Source of the DNA: a virus
Lineage: Duplodnaviria; Heunggongvirae; Uroviricota; Caudoviricetes
DNA: 6,119 bases
Strand: one strand, 5' to 3'
Virus record (IMG/VR): IMGVR_UViG_2534681763_000010
Coordinates: 1-6,119 of that record
The notes below the pieces were generated by a model, which was given only the letters and a program-made list of their open reading frames with translations, was not told the DNA's origin and searched no databases. Both the position numbers and the translations under genes were made by a program. This document shows, one piece after another, positions 1 through 6,119 of this stretch; within the stretch, counting starts at the first letter, position 1, and the number at the start of each line of letters is the position of its first letter.

Positions 1-236
1 GGTTTTGACTGGTCAGCGATGGCCTGCAACGACGCCGCCAGCGTGCCTTTTTTACCGGCCTTTGCAATTGCGCTCTGCACATTGGTAATCAGCACAGGTT
101 TATTGAGGGGAAAGGTTTCCGCATCCGCATCGCTGGCCGTGCAGACCATGCCGACAATGGCAGTGGATACGGTGGAAATGACGCGGGTGCCGTCGTTAAT
201 CTCCAGCACCTGCACGCCGTGATGATAGTCACTCAT
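1..236 (-). CDS. FI: Tail sheath protein FI, N-terminal fragment (gene continues past the window start)
   Basis: Minus-strand ATG at 236..234 preceded by GGAG about 10 nt upstream. Translation [78 protein letters not shown] matches my memory of the P2 gpFI N-terminus. The plus-strand track ORF 19..222 is the antisense shadow. Confidence 0.9.
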
Positions 237-299
237 CCGTTTAACTCCGTGGTTAATGGGTGCAACTATTTTCTGTTGTGCAGAGCATGAGACGCTATT

Positions 300-314
300 T
301 GACCTGGCTGGTCA
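300..314 (-). promoter_or_regulatory. Perfect dyad TGACC-N5-GGTCA in the short promoter region upstream of FI; candidate activator/operator site for the late sheath operon promoter
   Basis: Seen directly: TGACC at 300..304 and GGTCA at 310..314, about 80 nt upstream of the FI ATG, between a terminator and the FI ribosome-binding site. P2 late promoters are activator (Ogr)-dependent, but this dyad does not match the TGT-N12-ACA consensus I recall, so the assignment is tentative. Confidence 0.25.
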
Positions 315-330
315 GGGGATGAAACAACAG

Positions 331-358
331 ATAAAGAAAATGCGGGCAATTCGCCCGC
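331..358 (-). terminator. Rho-independent terminator (minus-strand orientation) ending the upstream cargo/tail-fibre transcript before the FI promoter
   Basis: GC-rich 6-bp stem GCGGGC (342..347) pairing with GCCCGC (353..358), 5-nt loop. On the minus-strand transcript it is followed immediately by the U-rich run AUUUUCUUUAU (plus 341..331). Confidence 0.5.
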
Positions 359-579
359 CTGTCCTGATTTGTACTCACTCATTTTCCGCCTGACAATTTA
401 CATAGCCCAAATGCTATCAAATCTGACAGTCTGCTTTGAGCGAAGAGCGGACTTGAGACTATTGTAAATGAAAACCATATAATTTTAACCGGCAGAAACA
501 CATGAGTAATTTTAAGGCTAATTAGTTATCTGGGAGATGAGGGGCAAAGCACGATATCGTACACCAATGGAATAAGCTT

Positions 580-613
580 ATGATTAATATAAATATAAAA
601 GGCAGAAAGCCTT
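580..613 (-). terminator. Weak candidate terminator-like hairpin inside the 600-bp non-coding spacer
   Basis: 5-bp stem AAGGC (599..603) / GCCTT (609..613) with loop AGAAA; on the minus strand it is followed by the U/A-rich run UUUUAUAUUUAUAUU (plus 598..580). Short stem, so low confidence. Confidence 0.25.
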
Positions 614-833
614 CCTCAAAATGGCTTGAATCGGGGGCATCTGTCTGCGAAACGATTTTTTAGACGTTTTTATCGCTTTCAGTTCAGTTTTCCCCTCGAA
701 TCCAAGTGACAAAGCCGATTTAGTTTTCACACATCCGTACAATGTGCATCCCTCGATGAGCCTTTTCAGGCAAAGTTACGGGGATGCTTGATTCATTTAA
801 ACTGAGTTAGTACAACTTAATTAATAATATCAT

Positions 834-1826
834 TTATGCTAGAGTTGAATATTCTCCATTTCCTCGGTCGGTGAGTGTTAATTCGCGGCCATTTTCTGTA
901 AATGTAATGGCATCCAGCAGGCTTTTTCCTGTTACAGCTATACCATATCCAAGGTTATCAATCTTTGAACTGTCCTCAGATGATATTGGTATTTGTACAA
1001 GCATACCAACAACAAAGCCGTATTTGTTAATTATAGGGCCACCGCTATTCCCCCCCTTAACCCTAGCATTGAATAATAAAAAGTCTTGTGAATCTAAGTA
1101 AGAGTGACCAGAACCAACAATTCGCCCCTTTGACAGTCGGACAAACGAATTTATATGCGAAACGTCATATAACTTTAATGCATCAAATCCTGGAATGGGT
1201 GGAAATCCTATTGATAAAATTTCATCCAGTACCGAGGCTTTGGTTGAGACCTTAAGTGGTTGAATATTATCTTCATTCGGAATGGTTGTGAAAACTAAAG
1301 CGATATCAATACGTTCATCGTTAGATACAAAGATTTTATGTATTGGTAAAGCCTCACCACCAGCTCTAAGTATCCTGATACTCTTCATGTCTTCAATAAC
1401 ATGTCTGGCTGTAAATATCGTGTGGTTATTCCCAACAATAAAACTAGTACCAAGATCATGTGAACCATCACTTTTTTCAACAACAACAGGTAAAACGGAA
1501 GGACTAAGGCGGTCTATGATTGACTCAAATCCATCAGCTATAAAATCATACTTTCCATATTTCGCATCTGATTCATTGAAATTCGGTGCGAAATAGCAAC
1601 GGTCCAAAAGAGTATGTCCTGAAGATAATTCCATTAAAATACCTTCAGTTGCTAGCTTTTCACAATTGCGTATTAACTTCATCATATCGAGAGTATTTTC
1701 CCACTCAGGTTTGAGACGGGTCAGGCTCTCAATTGTTTTTCTCTCTTTTACGTTATCGTTTTCCGGTTTGTCATAAAAATATTTCACTATTTCTGTTGGT
1801 GTTACATATGTTTTTTTTATAGTCAT
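834..1826 (-). CDS. Trypsin-like (chymotrypsin-fold, S1 family, HtrA/DegP-like motifs) serine protease with an uncharacterised N-terminal domain; cargo (moron) gene in the G-FI hotspot
   Basis: Long minus-strand ORF ending at TAA 836..834. Catalytic motifs in canonical His-Asp-Ser order: TARHV (His codon 1401..1403), DIALVF (Asp codon 1305..1307), GGNSGGP (Ser codon 1044..1046). No hydrophobic signal peptide or transmembrane stretch at the N-terminus, so probably cytoplasmic. About 35% GC versus about 55-63% in flanking tail genes. Start chosen at ATG 1826 (MTIKKTYV...) because a candidate promoter lies just upstream; the track ORF starts at an in-frame GTG at 1880 (18 codons longer), which cannot be excluded. 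Confidence 0.8.
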   Translation of the reverse strand: MTIKKTYVTPTEIVKYFYDKPENDNVKERKTIESLTRLKPEWENTLDMMKLIRNCEKLATEGILMELSSGHTLLDRCYFAPNFNESDAKYGKYDFIADGFESIIDRLSPSVLPVVVEKSDGSHDLGTSFIVGNNHTIFTARHVIEDMKSIRILRAGGEALPIHKIFVSNDERIDIALVFTTIPNEDNIQPLKVSTKASVLDEILSIGFPPIPGFDALKLYDVSHINSFVRLSKGRIVGSGHSYLDSQDFLLFNARVKGGNSGGPIINKYGFVVGMLVQIPISSEDSSKIDNLGYGIAVTGKSLLDAITFTENGRELTLTDRGNGEYSTLA

Positions 1827-1870
1827 TTTTGTACCCGCGATGACGTTATTCCATATATTTTTCTTTGTAG

Positions 1871-1899
1871 AAAATATCACTATTGCTGGTAAATGTTAA
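1871..1899 (-). promoter_or_regulatory. Candidate sigma70-type promoter for the protease gene
   Basis: On the minus strand, TTAACA (plus 1899..1894), 17-nt spacer, TATTTT (plus 1876..1871). This predicts a transcript start near 1864, consistent with the ATG at 1826 rather than the GTG at 1880. Pattern match only. Confidence 0.3.
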
Positions 1900-2144
1900 G
1901 TTCAGTGCTCGCACTAAAGCTGGATGATCAACGTCGCCCTCGTATGGAAATCAGGTAAGATTCATGTCTACTTGGGGTCTAGGGTAGACAGCATAAAAAC
2001 GTACGATAGCGTTCGATTGGCTCTCACCCCCGCCTATAAACCATGAGGTTGATAGGGTAGTATCGTTAGGCAATAGTATACATGTAAGTATCCAACCTAA
2101 TTGGTCTTGAGATTTCTAACTAACGTGTCGTTATGTCCGCTCCT

Positions 2145-2168
2145 GGCACAGAGCGGACTGTCAGATTA
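2145..2168 (-). other. Strong perfect hairpin about 50 nt downstream of the gene G stop: possible terminator or RNA-stability element, or part of a structured RNA
   Basis: Perfect 8-bp inverted repeat GTCCGCTC (2145..2152) / GAGCGGAC (2161..2168) with an 8-nt loop. No U-tract follows on the minus strand, so it is not a canonical intrinsic terminator. Confidence 0.4.
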
Positions 2169-2219
2169 GGCTTTACTCTGTTCTATAGGTATGTAAGCTC
2201 ACACAAGAGTTCATACAAC

Positions 2220-2747
2220 TTATTGCGGCATTTCCGGCCATTCAGGATTTGCAGGATCCACACGACTGATCAGAACGCTGTAGCGTTCCCATGATTCCAG
2301 TCGGCTACGCTCCTCATCTGTTGCCATGTTCAGTCTGACCGCGCGCTCCAGCGGCAAAATCACGGATTCAGCATCTGCAAGAAGTCTGGCTTTCCGAATT
2401 TCTGCCTGCTGCTGTAATTCCTCTGCCGTATAAATGCGTTTAATCACTTTGCCGTCCTTAAACATCCAGTTCCCTGAAATGTCCGCCCGTCGGTTAGCAG
2501 TAATATCCGCCACTTCAACAACACTTAATCCATCCGGTCTGATAGCTGTCACATCCTTTTCCACATAGTGGATGATATTATCTTTGTCGTACGCTATTTT
2601 TATCGTGTCATCAGCAAAATACTTTTGTTCTTCGTACCAGTTCTTACCATCTTCTGAAAAAAACCAGACAACATCAAAGTCCTTTGTCAATTGATATTGT
2701 TCAACCGTTTTTGGATTACCCACCGTTATATTTATCAAATGCTGCAT
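2220..2747 (-). CDS. G: Tail fibre assembly chaperone (P2 gpG-like)
   Basis: 175-aa ORF; N-terminus MQHL.N...GNPKT.EQYQLTK and C-terminus [44 protein letters not shown] match my memory of P2 gpG. The ATG at 2747 lies 3 nt downstream of the H stop codon, typical operon packing. Confidence 0.9.
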
Positions 2748-2750
2748 AAA

Positions 2751-5069
2751 TTATACCTGCGCCACGTTATACCATGTCCCGTTAATGTATTTCTGCACCG
2801 GTCTGTAATATATGCCACCAATGTTATCGGCAGAGTTTGAGCCGGTATCCTGAACAATAATGCCGGAATATACACACCCGGACGGTGCCTGATGTGTCCA
2901 TGTCATGCCATTGTTCGCAGGTTTGTATGTGGCAGCACCACCAAGCCGGATATCCCGGACATAGCGTGAATCAAAGTTGCCATAGTTAGATGGTGATACC
3001 TGCCCGTTAACAGCAAAAGTGATGCTGTTATCTGTATTTCTCTGACTGTAAAAATGCCAGCCTGCATCATCACCTAATTCAGCCACCACCGGACGACTTG
3101 AGTTTCCCCACAAATTGAATGCGGCTTCCTTCGTGGATGTATTACTGCTGCTGACCGTGAATTTTTTCCCGCTACCGGCACGTACTTTGGTACTTGAGAC
3201 AATATCACCAGTAACATTCAGGCCATGCCCCATTGATACAGCACCCGTGGCATCATTTATAATCAGCGGTCTTAAATTATTATAACTGCCTAATCTGTCA
3301 CCTGATTTAGTCAACATAAAATAAGTGCTGCTGCCATCATTCCTGATAAAGAAACCATAATTGCCATAAGCAATGCGCAGACCATTAGCACTGAGTGATG
3401 TAATCTCACCTCTTGAACGGAGACCATAAGCGGAGCTGAGTGATAATTCTTCCTGAGCATCAGTATTACCAGTCGCCCAGCGAACTACCCCGCCCTGTAC
3501 TGTTTCATGCCAGATAGTGTCTCCTTCTCCACCACGAAACTTTCTGAGATATTTTTTGCCGCCTCTGGTGCCTGAACATAAGGCCGTAGACATATAGGCA
3601 TTCTGGCTTCCGCCATCCTGATTAATCGTTCCGGTCATTGCGTCGCCCTGACGATTCCAGTCACGACGCCAGCCGGGGGAGTAGCCGTCCCCATGATTTA
3701 TGTAAGTGAATTGCGCGCTGGTTGTACCGCCACCGCTTGATGTTGTCGGCGTGGTCACTCGGATAGTGATTGCAGATTTAGTTCCCATGACCTCGACGAC
3801 ACAACCAGCCAGGTGGATATCACCACATCCGGTATCCGTAATGATTTTGTTATTTGCATATGACCAGGAGCCTTTGCACATCCAGTACGGATGATTAAAT
3901 GCACCACGGGAATCCAGCCATTCAATAAACTGAGCGGTTGTCCAGTTTCCGGCTTCAGTGCTCAAAGCGCCGCTATAAGCACGACAGGCACCGATATTTT
4001 TCGTGAAGGTATCCTTTCCCGGAATATCCGCACCGTTCTGATCTTTCTGAAGACGTTTTTCAGCATTGTCATAGGCAGACTTCACCGCTTTTGATGTTGC
4101 GGCCAGCGTTTCAGAATCACTGTTGGTGGCGCTACTGAGCTGAACAAGACCTTTCCGCGCCGTGGTGGCGTCCTGTGCAGTGTATTTCCCGTTAGCAAGG
4201 TCATACGCTGTCTTAACCGCCTTTGGCGTTGCCGCAAGCGTTTCAGAATCGCTGTTGGTGGCGCTACTGAGCTGGACAAGACCTTTTCGCGCTGTGGTGG
4301 CGTCCTGTGCAGTGTATTTCCCGTTAGCAAGGTCATATGCTGCCTTTACCGCTTTTGGTGTTGCGGCGAGCGTTTCAGACGTGCTGTTGGTGGCGCTACT
4401 GAGCTGGACAAGGCCTTTTCGCGCTGTGGTGGCATCCTGCGCAGTGTATTTCCCGTTAGCAAGATCATACGCGGCCTTTACCGCTTTCGGCGTTGCGGCC
4501 AGTGTTTCAGACGTGCTGTTGGTCGCATTGCTTAACTGAGTAAAACCTTTTGCGGTCAGCGAGGCGTCCGGGTGACGTCGTGACTGTTCATGCTCTGCAA
4601 TTTTGTCATCAACGTAATCCTGCGTCGCCATCACCGTTGTGGTGTCAATGGTCAGCGCCACTGAGGCCACACTGCTGACGATGATGACCATGCGACAGGT
4701 CTGCGAACGCCCTGAGCCTTCGGCAAGAGCTGGCTTATAACTTTCGGCCATGTTCGCCACGGCAATTAATGTTCCCGCATCATCGTACAGGCCAAGCTCA
4801 CGCATCCAGAAACCGCCCACCTCCGGCGGAATAACCAGCTCTGCGATAATATAATTACTGTTTCGTTTGTCCTGGCTGATTTTGTTCAGCGCATGTCGCC
4901 AGACTTCATGGATAAGCCCGGTCTGTCCGGCATTCGGGACAGGCAATTTACCACCGCCATCCCCGACGGCCATCGTGGTAATGTTGACCTTCCGCCCTCC
5001 CGGCGCGGTTGCCGCTGCCAGCTTTGCTGCACCGGCAGTGGTGATAACGGTTCTGAATTTTGTGCTCAT
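2751..5069 (-). CDS. H: Tail fibre protein (P2 gpH-like), mosaic: conserved N-terminal baseplate-attachment region, expanded 44-aa repeat shaft, divergent central region, P2-like C-terminus
   Basis: 772-aa ORF with GAGGA 5 nt upstream of the ATG at 5069. The N-terminal approx. 170 aa (MSTKFRTVITTAGAAKLAAA...ATQDYVDDKIAEHEQSRRHPDA) and the C-terminal approx. 138 aa (...AGWHFYSQRNTDNS...PVQKYINGTWYNVAQV) resemble P2 H as I recall it. It is longer than P2 H (about 669 aa from memory). Confidence 0.9.
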   Translation of the reverse strand: MSTKFRTVITTAGAAKLAAATAPGGRKVNITTMAVGDGGGKLPVPNAGQTGLIHEVWRHALNKISQDKRNSNYIIAELVIPPEVGGFWMRELGLYDDAGTLIAVANMAESYKPALAEGSGRSQTCRMVIIVSSVASVALTIDTTTVMATQDYVDDKIAEHEQSRRHPDASLTAKGFTQLSNATNSTSETLAATPKAVKAAYDLANGKYTAQDATTARKGLVQLSSATNSTSETLAATPKAVKAAYDLANGKYTAQDATTARKGLVQLSSATNSDSETLAATPKAVKTAYDLANGKYTAQDATTARKGLVQLSSATNSDSETLAATSKAVKSAYDNAEKRLQKDQNGADIPGKDTFTKNIGACRAYSGALSTEAGNWTTAQFIEWLDSRGAFNHPYWMCKGSWSYANNKIITDTGCGDIHLAGCVVEVMGTKSAITIRVTTPTTSSGGGTTSAQFTYINHGDGYSPGWRRDWNRQGDAMTGTINQDGGSQNAYMSTALCSGTRGGKKYLRKFRGGEGDTIWHETVQGGVVRWATGNTDAQEELSLSSAYGLRSRGEITSLSANGLRIAYGNYGFFIRNDGSSTYFMLTKSGDRLGSYNNLRPLIINDATGAVSMGHGLNVTGDIVSSTKVRAGSGKKFTVSSSNTSTKEAAFNLWGNSSRPVVAELGDDAGWHFYSQRNTDNSITFAVNGQVSPSNYGNFDSRYVRDIRLGGAATYKPANNGMTWTHQAPSGCVYSGIIVQDTGSNSADNIGGIYYRPVQKYINGTWYNVAQV
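4040..4560. repeat. Tandem 132-bp (44-codon) in-frame repeats inside tail-fibre gene H: three near-full copies plus diverged partial copies at each end
   Basis: The motif GCTACTGAGCTG(A/G)ACAAG recurs at 4131, 4263 and 4395, an exact 132-nt period. Encoded units read TARKGLVQLSSATNS(T/D)SETLAATPKAVK(A/T)AYDLANGKYTAQDAT. The repeats also generate the spurious overlapping track ORFs 4082..4336 (-) and 4162..4539 (+). Confidence 0.85.
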
Positions 5070-5079
5070 TATTCCTCAC

Positions 5080-5610
5080 TTATCCGGGATAAACCGTAAT
5101 TACATCGCCGTCGTAAGCCACACCACCGGCGAACAGGTAGCCGGGAATGTCCCGGGTAATGTTCAGGCCAATAAGGTGACGGCTTGCAGGTTTGGCATCA
5201 GCAATCAGCCGTTCCATTTCCTGATACATTGCCTCTGTGATGCCACTTTCCAGTACACCAATATCAAGCCGGAAGGTGCCGGGCGGGTCACTGTTTTCCC
5301 ACCACTCCGTCACGTTGATGAGATAGCCGAGCGGCTCCACCACACGCCGGATTGCACCTATAGTGCCTTTATGACAGTGGATGAAATACGCATCGCGGAT
5401 AACGGCGCGTTTTGTCGCTTCCGGCCACTTCTCATCCCACCTGTCGACCGAAAACGCCCACGCCAGCCACGGCAGCAAATTTGCCGGACAGGTATCCGGG
5501 TTCCACAGCTCACGAATACTGACCGGCGTTTTTTCAATTTCCGCACAGGCTTTTGCGGCGGCGACCTCAAGCGGTGATGAGCCGGTCGGCAGCAGTCGCG
5601 AATCACTCAT
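5080..5610 (-). CDS. I: Baseplate/tail protein I (P2 gpI-like)
   Basis: 176-aa ORF directly upstream of H on the coding strand; the sequence (MSDSRLLPTGSSPLEVAAAKACAEIEK...) agrees with my memory of P2 gpI. Its ATG at 5610 overlaps the J stop codon by 8 nt (ATGAGTGA), indicating translational coupling. Confidence 0.9.
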   Translation of the reverse strand: MSDSRLLPTGSSPLEVAAAKACAEIEKTPVSIRELWNPDTCPANLLPWLAWAFSVDRWDEKWPEATKRAVIRDAYFIHCHKGTIGAIRRVVEPLGYLINVTEWWENSDPPGTFRLDIGVLESGITEAMYQEMERLIADAKPASRHLIGLNITRDIPGYLFAGGVAYDGDVITVYPG

Positions 5611-6119
5611 CCGAGCCTCCGGTCACGACGCGGTATTCGGTACAGAAAGACGCCTGCGTACTGTTGAGCACGATGTCGGCCAGTGGTGCAGCCAGTTCGA
5701 CACGCTGCACACCTTCCACATGCAAAGCGGCATAAATGGCAGACAGACGGATGTCACGCCCCAGCCGGTGCTGTGCCGTGATATACGCTTCCAGTTTTTT
5801 CACGGCGGCAGCGCGGATGGGTTCGCTTTCGGGACCAGGGTAAAGGTAAAGCGTGGCGTTTATCTGGTATTCAACAATGGCGGCAGACTGCACGGTCACG
5901 CGGTCGGCCACCGGCCTGACGTCCTCGCCATTAAGGGCGTTACGCACCGCCGCCAGCAGATCTTCGGATGCCACACCGTTATTTTCACGTGACAGCACGG
6001 AGATGGTGACGCAGGCCGGAGACGGACTGGTGACAGAGATATCCGCGACACGCCCGTCGGCACTGCGACCATGATACTGATAGGCTCCCACCGACCCGGC
6101 GACGCTTAAGCCTTCAAAC
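5603..6119 (-). CDS. J: Baseplate assembly protein J (P2 gpJ-like), C-terminal part (gene continues past the window end)
   Basis: The track ORF starts at an internal GTG at 6091, but the frame stays open to the window edge; codons 6118..6092 read FEGLSVAGS, continuous with VGAYQYHGRSADGRVADISVTSP..., which matches P2 gpJ as I recall it. Stop TGA at 5605..5603. Confidence 0.9.
   Translation of the reverse strand, partial: FEGLSVAGSVGAYQYHGRSADGRVADISVTSPSPACVTISVLSRENNGVASEDLLAAVRNALNGEDVRPVADRVTVQSAAIVEYQINATLYLYPGPESEPIRAAAVKKLEAYITAQHRLGRDIRLSAIYAALHVEGVQRVELAAPLADIVLNSTQASFCTEYRVVTGGSDE

Follow-up and report, generated by a model that had tools for sequence, protein, structure and literature searches.

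A winged-helix, HtrA-like serine protease encoded by a mobile cassette at the G-FI junction of a P2-like prophage

Proteolysis is a recurrent switch in bacterial immunity, employed in gasdermin activation, pro-nuclease activation, CHAT and caspase-like systems, and to our knowledge the known trypsin-like defense proteases all act on a substrate that is encoded together with them. Here, we describe a trypsin-like protease gene found in a 6,119-nucleotide stretch of viral DNA (IMG/VR record IMGVR_UViG_2534681763_000010, positions 1 to 6,119; referred to as the window), which represents the tail region of a P2-like (Peduovirus) prophage. The gene encodes an N-terminal winged-helix domain followed by an HtrA-like protease domain and forms a cassette between the tail fiber assembly gene G and the tail sheath gene FI. 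Judging from its genomic context, there is in our estimate about an even chance that it confers prophage-encoded anti-phage immunity, exerted by a single polypeptide through proteolysis that is triggered by the winged helix.

Several described systems resemble this protein in one respect or another. HtrA-type proteases (HtrA, DegS and DegP; MEROPS S1C), which are switched on allosterically and by oligomerization through a sensor domain, share with it the chymotrypsin fold, the H-D-S order of the catalytic residues, the GNSGGP sequence and a GxPxGF motif. However, they possess a PDZ domain and a signal peptide or membrane anchor, whereas the window protein has none of these and instead features the N-terminal winged helix and a loop that is about 9 residues longer. 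Lit of prophage e14, a zinc metalloprotease that causes abortive infection by cleaving EF-Tu, is likewise a cytoplasmic protease encoded by a single prophage gene, and cleavage of a host protein upon a phage trigger may be a further point in common; as a metalloprotease, however, Lit has no relation in sequence or fold to the serine protease of the window. Prohead and virion proteases, finally, are encoded in the head module and adopt S49, S14, S78 or HK97-type folds.

Among defense systems, the closest matches in library searches are nuclease-protease pairs. Their trypsin-like proteases are fused to HamA, LmuA, Avs1a or a reverse transcriptase (RT) and become activated by oligomerization of the fused sensor (Tuck et al. 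2026, PMC12799240); in the HamMAB, Avs1, Lamassu and defense-associated reverse transcriptase (DRT) variants, they cleave a co-encoded pro-nuclease of the metallo-beta-lactamase (MBL) fold, whose gene is always located immediately upstream (PMC12799240). Like the window protein, these pairs feature a cytoplasmic protease fused to a non-catalytic or sensor domain, and it is plausible, by analogy, that activation through sensor-driven oligomerization is shared as well. In contrast to the window protein, which stands alone and whose protease domain is C-terminal to the winged helix, they hold the protease at the N terminus of the fusion. The insertion site, in turn, is a documented hotspot: the G-FI site of P2-like phages is known to harbor Z/fun (Calendar 1998) and three further systems validated by Vassallo 2022 (PMC9519451). 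These G-FI systems have in common with the window gene the site itself, a low GC content, an accessory nature and a variable presence among P2-like phages, but the proteins are unrelated.

Domains, start codon and fold of the protease

The Pfam profile Trypsin_2 (PF13365) matches the window protein over all of its 144 positions, with an E value of 1.8e-17 and a score of 64.8 bits against a cut-off of 27.6, and Pfam Trypsin is matched as well. The catalytic residues appear in canonical order as His142 (in TARHV), Asp174 (in DIAL) and Ser261 (in GGNSGGP), where residue numbers refer to the 330-amino-acid (aa) form of the protein, and all three are invariant across a 31-sequence alignment that reaches down to 26% identity. 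An initial annotation of this DNA, made from the sequence alone, had recognized both this complete triad and the exact position of the serine codon. It had also proposed a cytoplasmic protein that lacks a signal peptide, in agreement with the hydropathy profile: the N terminus is hydrophilic (mean hydropathy of −1.2 over the first 30 aa), the maximum over any 19-aa window is 1.2, and neither a signal peptide nor a transmembrane segment is found, such that the protein is predicted to be cytoplasmic.

The structure prediction and fold search that the same annotation had called for resulted in an AlphaFold2 model, built on the family alignment, with a predicted local distance difference test (pLDDT) score of 84 and a predicted template modeling (pTM) score of 0.84. 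The model shows a chymotrypsin fold that superposes on the protease domains of DegS and DegP, and Foldseek matches it to the protease domains of DegS, DegP, DegQ, AlgW and MucD with E values of about 1e-14 at 18 to 23% identity. No PDZ domain is found in Pfam, the structural alignments are limited to the protease domain, and the protein ends about 70 aa past the catalytic serine. Since it lacks a PDZ domain and since the HtrA, DegP and DegS equivalogs of NCBIfam score 20 to 45 bits, far below their cut-offs of 250 to 800, the protein is not a DegP orthologue. A prohead or virion protease is ruled out by the position among tail genes, the chymotrypsin fold and the viral structure library, in which matches are at the level of the protease domain only. 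Thus, neither of the two identities that had been set against the original proposal, a DegP orthologue or a virion protease, emerged from NCBIfam, Foldseek or the viral structure library.

Within the protease domain, both the GNSGGP motif and the G[FY]PPIPGF region align with HtrA proteins, the latter being the equivalent of the HtrA sequence GSPFGFD. The family-specific form of this region and the extended loop together span residues 208 to 227, which are among the most conserved positions of the family and yet represent the sole low-confidence part of the AlphaFold2 model (pLDDT below 50 for residues 211 to 227). Judging from the sequence, it is possible that this segment is a regulatory, gating or substrate-binding loop.

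The initial annotation presented the protease alone and missed the N-terminal winged helix as well as the HtrA-like, PDZ-less character of the protein. Residues 1 to 112 have no Pfam family and were resolved as a winged helix by fold search alone; modeled separately, they reach a pLDDT of 83. Two other identities were considered for this region and rejected. An AsnC-like domain was suggested by a marginal sequence match in the PDB (E value of 0.013), and a Pfam match to CTD12 (ABC-3C) over residues 5 to 46 of the longer, 348-aa form of the protein was dismissed because it is below the cut-off and falls partly within an extension that is not translated in the shorter form. When a profile of the N-terminal domain was compared with 1.84 billion (1.84e9) representative proteins, it retrieved 148 clusters, nearly all of them 310 to 370 aa long and of the same architecture. 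Given that essentially one architecture occurs among these 148 clusters, the winged helix appears to be private to this small family, rather than a sensor module that is shuffled between proteins. The N-terminal domain evolves at about twice the rate of the catalytic domain, as expected of a recognition module. It is near neutral across the family (median pI of 6.5) and not basic in most members, and its recognition helix holds no conserved basic residues in the 31-sequence alignment; these features favor a protein or another ligand as the partner, which is more probably what the winged helix binds than duplex DNA. The resulting architecture, in which a private winged helix is joined to an HtrA-like protease that lacks both a PDZ domain and a pro-enzyme partner, located in a known prophage hotspot, is new.

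The reading frame, whose stop codon occupies positions 834 to 836 on the minus strand, can start either from GTG 1880, which yields 348 aa, or from ATG 1826, which yields 330 aa. We prefer ATG 1826 on four grounds. First, the identical gene is 993 nt long in RefSeq, where it is named "S1 family peptidase" (WP_000152899.1). Second, the phrog_18002 profile aligns from end to end (330 of 330 positions; E value of 4.3e-235) with residues 19 to 348 of the 348-aa form. Third, the family alignment shows that the majority of relatives start at the methionine equivalent to ATG 1826. Fourth, the best promoter-like site falls within the extension that GTG 1880 would add, with its −35 element at 1899 and its −10 element ending at 1871. 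The true start is therefore probably ATG 1826 rather than GTG 1880. The open reading frame (ORF) of 330 to 348 aa in the initial annotation is hence real, with the 330-aa form favored, although the alternative start at ATG 1826 had been missed. By our own arithmetic, about 6.8% of random codons are stops at this base composition, which gives a chance of about 1e-10 for 330 stop-free codons. The ratio of nonsynonymous to synonymous substitution rates (dN/dS) is 0.12 to 0.19 against relatives at 53 to 87% identity, and the gene is under purifying selection. The sequence itself is thus already known in RefSeq and PHROGs, where WP_000152899.1 and phrog_18002 represent the same full-length protein and carry no function beyond the name of the peptidase domain.

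In PADLOC, the protein matches RT-Protease_XI (7.4e-13), LmuA (4.6e-10) and HamA1 (1.8e-7), in each case limited to the protease part of the profile, and no match to any PD-T4, PD-T7 or PD-lambda family was obtained. The earlier statement that no named defense system could be recognized therefore holds, given that Pfam, PADLOC and NCBIfam yield domain-level matches only. What had been left out are the trypsin-like proteases that activate MBL pro-nucleases (PMC12799240), which the window locus does not fit: the window contains no gene for an MBL-fold protein, and none appears as a conserved neighbor in the 51 loci compared, so that the protein is not a member of these protease/pro-nuclease pairs. 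Another published candidate, "Peptidase + TM" (transmembrane), which Rousset et al. had cloned (pFR104), was considered and rejected, since it is a metallopeptidase of the ImmA/IrrE type and unrelated to the window protein. As a separate observation, Table S5 of Rousset et al. 2022 lists a different Trypsin_2/Trypsin protein, WP_001350593, at the other P2 hotspot (the old/tin site), where it is part of a five-gene arrangement of a hypothetical gene, the Trypsin_2 gene, two further hypothetical genes and DinI.

A one-gene cassette and its mobility

About 2 kb of low-GC DNA separates G from FI, and the sole long ORF in it is the protease frame at 834..1880 on the minus strand. In other P2-like phages, the P2 backbone matches the window at 93 to 97% identity over positions 1..452 and again from about 2132-2144 (to 2800), and between these flanks other cargo is found, namely, HAD and NUDIX genes, a gene for a 251-aa hypothetical protein or orf20 of fiAA91-ss. 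Because the backbone is shared on both sides and unrelated cargo lies between, the cargo DNA of the window can be delimited to about 453..2131. Together with the published hotspot, this confirms that the G-FI junction accommodates variable cargo, as had been put forward before, and the Pfam and RefSeq annotation of the flanks confirms the position of the gene between G and FI. The GC contrast claimed at the same time held in part: with 37.1% GC (28% at third codon positions), the protease ORF is near the roughly 35% claimed, but the neighboring genes, at 44 to 60%, are below the 55 to 63% stated for them.

The edges of the cargo coincide with an inverted repeat whose arms are 85% complementary and which recurs in P2-like phages that hold different cargo. 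Hairpins within both arms were considered but ruled out by folding, which shows a stable stem in the arm adjoining G only. The repeat could insulate transcription of the cargo or serve recombination during cargo swapping. Inside the cassette, the promoter-like site is part of a stretch from −108 to −23 relative to the ATG that is conserved in relatives at other locations, and the 340 bp upstream of the protease gene hold no ORF longer than 40 aa before G is reached. Downstream, a 52-aa, TTG-initiated ORF (584..742, minus strand) ends at a terminator-like hairpin. Like the other small ORFs of the insert, this ORF is not conserved among relatives, and in two of them (L087 and L088) the whole segment 515-833 is missing, such that the stop codon is directly followed by sequence similar to 416-514. 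A search against Rfam found nothing. Given the conserved stretch upstream of the ATG, the lack of conservation of the 52-aa ORF and the absence of Rfam matches, we regard the cassette as a single gene with its own promoter. The initial annotation had assumed a single gene, too, and neither a hidden partner ORF or RNA nor a neighbor conserved over the 51 loci speaks against it; when all neighboring ORFs were clustered, no cluster was common to more than 3 of these 51 loci.

The gene is present in 41 of 5426 complete Escherichia coli genomes (0.76%), enterotoxigenic (ETEC) and avian pathogenic (APEC) strains among them, always with at least 99.6% identity, intact in every case and in two contexts. 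In 28 of the 41 carriers, the cassette ends inside the repeat arms (423..2154; 99.2% identical) and belongs to a decayed P2/P4 island at tRNA-Thr, which adjoins proA in about 28 E. coli genomes (e.g., E. coli CP66-6, NZ_CP053723.1 3752730-3781722; locus L092). This island contains psu, an Ogr/Delta fragment, an RNA-directed DNA polymerase gene with a hypothetical gene, IS3, split integrases, DUF4236 and DUF2971 genes, and a fragment of a tail fiber assembly gene, and it looks like a mobile-element graveyard that has retained defense-like cargo. Among 50,697 deposited phage genomes, the gene is absent save for one 23% match. Klebsiella IncF plasmids carry a copy with 86% protein identity that adjoins IS3 and a TacAT module. 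Relatives with 65 to 87% identity occupy four settings: another P2-like tail fiber region that has an invertase, a site directly after an integrase at smpB, a plasmid with ParM, StbA and ParE, and the vicinity of transposase-like (HTH_32) genes with a gene for a TacA antitoxin domain. Members with 26 to 57% identity are found in Pseudomonas, Nitrospinota, Bacteroidota, Cyanobacteria, Verrucomicrobiota, Acidobacteriota and Alphaproteobacteria, and the spread of the family over phyla is sporadic. The family is thus small and horizontally mobile between phages, plasmids and defense islands, a spread outside phages that was missed when the gene was initially confined to phage cargo. With a length of 1.7 kb, the cassette thus occurs not only at a well-studied hotspot but also in lineages of ETEC and APEC and on plasmids of Klebsiella.

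This distribution bears on the idea that the gene is a selfish addiction or toxin module, or else a decaying passenger that lacks a current function, which we consider highly unlikely. Proteases can act as toxins, as exemplified by IetS, and on plasmids the gene is located near toxin-antitoxin modules (TacAT and ParE-Phd). However, no antitoxin-like ORF or RNA is conserved next to it, and the absence of any conserved adjacent partner gene or RNA speaks against a toxin-antitoxin module. The intact ORF in all 41 E. coli copies, the dN/dS values given above and the invariant triad argue against decay.

Defense-rich neighborhoods and candidate functions

Many relatives of the protease gene lie close to known or suspected defense genes. 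On a Pseudomonas metagenome contig (L003, positions 1-12026), a homolog with 54% identity is located between HEPN_AbiU2 and DUF4238 genes, the latter being a validated P2-hotspot defense, in a locus that adjoins a DUF927/Toprim primase and a series of small genes; it resembles a mobile element of the satellite or island type with a compact defense cluster. Elsewhere, we found type I restriction-modification (R-M), UmuDC and a transposase next to one relative, Drt2 (1e-143) together with a large SNF2 helicase, PDC-S15 (1e-100), type IIG R-M in 3 loci, and HipA as well as integrases. A PADLOC scan of the 142 nearest neighbors returned a prokaryotic Argonaute (pAgo; 2e-187) with TIR-APAZ, three hits to PARIS AriA, and two each to AbiL, RT-DUF3800, PDC-S73 and PDC-S01.

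An association within an operon is found in three Bacteroidales-type genomes (Alistipes, Limimorpha and an unclassified bacterium; L052 4248-5231, L055 7956-8945 and L057 5729-6700), in which the genes follow the order HKD plus Snf2 helicase, DUF4391, protease and type III methyltransferase, all on the same strand and separated by gaps of 45 to 67 nt. The operon-embedded proteases are 28 to 32% identical to the window protein and 48 to 74% identical to each other, with triad and architecture intact, which suggests that in this lineage the winged-helix protease is functionally coupled to an R-M-like system. It is tempting to extend this coupling to the whole family, i.e., to assume an accessory that acts in trans by activating or destroying a partner protein of an R-M-type or nuclease system encoded elsewhere. 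This would agree with the conservation of the subclade inside the type III-like R-M operon and with the trypsin-like defense proteases that act on a co-evolving pro-nuclease, whose modules are the closest PADLOC matches. However, apart from the lack of an MBL-fold gene in the window, no partner is conserved over the 51 loci, and the enterobacterial cassette moves as one gene among at least 4 unrelated backbones, which is hard to square with a specific partner, so that we judge a general role of this kind to be quite unlikely.

The same neighborhoods weigh on a role in counter-defense, in which the protease would degrade host immune proteins or factors of competitors and thereby aid the establishment or spread of its element. 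Variable hotspots of phages and plasmids are known from published work to contain anti-defense genes in general, and the gene indeed occurs on plasmids and adjoining integrases. Moreover, in the window it shares its strand with the late tail genes around it and is located downstream of a hairpin that has no U-tract, such that expression during lytic growth is possible. Against this, many homologs are chromosomal, set in non-phage surroundings and located beside or inside defense operons (Drt2, pAgo and R-M), a placement typical of defense genes rather than of inhibitors borne by an invader, and the conserved sigma-70-like promoter of the gene suits expression in a lysogen. Counter-defense therefore seems improbable to us.

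The reading that we favor is anti-phage immunity exerted by one protein, a role that the initial annotation had put forward as well, next to lysogenic conversion, and that the genomic context makes plausible. In this model, the winged helix would assume the sensor function that the PDZ domain has in HtrA proteases. It would bind a cue of infection, for which a protein or another ligand is more probable than duplex DNA, and binding of this cue would activate the protease either allosterically or by oligomerization. The activated protease would then cut a host or phage protein encoded elsewhere, a target that we assume because no substrate is co-encoded, and cleavage would lead to abortive infection, following a logic similar to that of Lit and EF-Tu but with different chemistry, or else block the phage directly. 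A more far-reaching version, which we put forward only tentatively, holds that such self-contained sensor-effectors, which would recognize a cue derived from the phage and directly cut a conserved protein of host or phage without a co-encoded pro-toxin, constitute a new class of protease-only abortive infection or defense that spreads horizontally and is occasionally recruited into R-M operons; with the same reserve, this spread might have connected prophages and plasmids of E. coli with Bacteroidota, Cyanobacteria and Nitrospinota.

Several points weigh against the immunity reading. Its functional support is guilt by association: the abundance of defense genes around the homologs is a qualitative observation made without a background comparison, and defense hotspots also carry anti-defense, virulence and partition genes. 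The PADLOC matches are at domain level only, the near-neutral charge of the winged helix is indirect with respect to its binding partner, and this domain could be merely structural or serve oligomerization. Furthermore, the protein is not described in the papers searched on P2 hotspots, functional selections in E. coli, DefensePredictor, metagenomic selection, or domain-centric or protease-based defense. Finally, some homologs are found among housekeeping genes (Nitrospina) or beside a type III secretion system cluster.

The latter placements, together with the ETEC and APEC carriers, would also fit a non-immune "moron", i.e., a cytoplasmic quality-control or regulatory protease involved in lysogenic conversion, which would alter the physiology, stress tolerance or virulence of the host, possibly as a DNA-binding winged-helix regulator that also has proteolytic activity. 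HtrA-type proteases are classically enzymes of stress response and quality control, and winged helices are common in transcription factors. This explanation is nevertheless unlikely in our view: the gene is rare and patchy, it is strictly linked to mobile DNA in enterobacteria, and the protein has no PDZ domain, is not periplasmic and carries a winged helix that is not basic in most members. In addition, the defense-rich neighborhoods would stay unexplained.

If the immunity reading is true, a standalone winged-helix protease can be a sensor-coupled protein and a terminal effector at once, and it would direct attention to a protein of the host or the phage that, once cleaved, brings infection to a halt. 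It would also add a family that current defense annotation (PADLOC 2.0, with domain-level matches only) does not recognize as a system. If the protein is not defensive, it still represents an unrecognized domain architecture of HtrA-like proteases on mobile elements. In either case, such hotspots contain many unknown genes, among which this one is distinguished by its unusual architecture.

Layout of the window

The P2-like genes of the window are all located on the minus strand, in a layout that agrees with how RefSeq annotates an ETEC chromosome of 99.8% identity (Table 1).

Table 1. Positions of the genes, domains and sequence signals in the window
Feature	Position	Strand	Remarks
Coding sequence of the winged-helix, HtrA-like serine protease, 330 aa plus stop	834..1826	-	ORF, Pfam, phrog_18002, RefSeq, alignment, dN/dS
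18-codon extension if GTG 1880 is used	1827..1880	-	probably non-coding 5' untranslated region and promoter
Winged-helix core, aa 1-82	1581..1826	-	helices 10-18, 32-36, 48-60; strands 65-68, 77-79
Helical linker, aa 83-112	1491..1580	-	family-conserved YGxYDF...GF motif (Y90, G91, Y93, G99, F100)
Chymotrypsin-fold, HtrA/DegS-like domain, aa 113-330	837..1490	-	includes C-terminal beta-hairpin tail; no PDZ
Pfam Trypsin_2 match	1002..1451	-	
Catalytic His142 codon	1401..1403	-	TARHV
Catalytic Asp174 codon	1305..1307	-	DIAL
Family signature G[FY]PPIPGFD with the extended loop (by about 9 residues relative to HtrA), aa 208-227	1146..1205	-	alignment, model
Catalytic Ser261 codon	1044..1046	-	GGNSGGP
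Sigma-70-like promoter	1871..1899	-	TTAACA, 17 nt, TATTTT, TG upstream
Terminator-like hairpin and T-run	597..615	-	220 nt past stop codon; weak, z -1.4
Cargo-specific DNA	453..2131	.	37.8% GC; absent from P2-like phages with other cargo here
Left arm of inverted repeat, 33 nt	420..452	.	backbone sequence at hotspot edge
Right arm of inverted repeat	2135..2167	.	with 9-bp GC-rich hairpin 60 nt downstream of G; z -3.6, no U-tract
P2 gene FI, tail sheath, 5' part (downstream neighbor)	1..234	-	56% GC
Terminator-like hairpin preceding FI	342..358		
P2 gene G, tail fiber assembly protein, Caudo_TAP (upstream neighbor)	2220..2747	-	44% GC; ORF, Pfam, RefSeq
Gene H, tail fiber	2751..5069	-	51% GC
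Gene I (Tail_P2_I)	5080..5610	-	56% GC
Gene J, partial	5603..6091	-	60% GC

Two observations on the tail fiber gene H are unrelated to the protease. In an otherwise near-identical ETEC genome (L001), gene H is annotated as fragmented pseudogenes. Between positions 4080 and 4540, the gene contains four tandem Phage_fiber_2 repeats, which are near-identical units of about 43 aa with the sequence ...TAQDATTARKGLVQLSSATNS.SETLAATPKAVK.AYDLANGKY.

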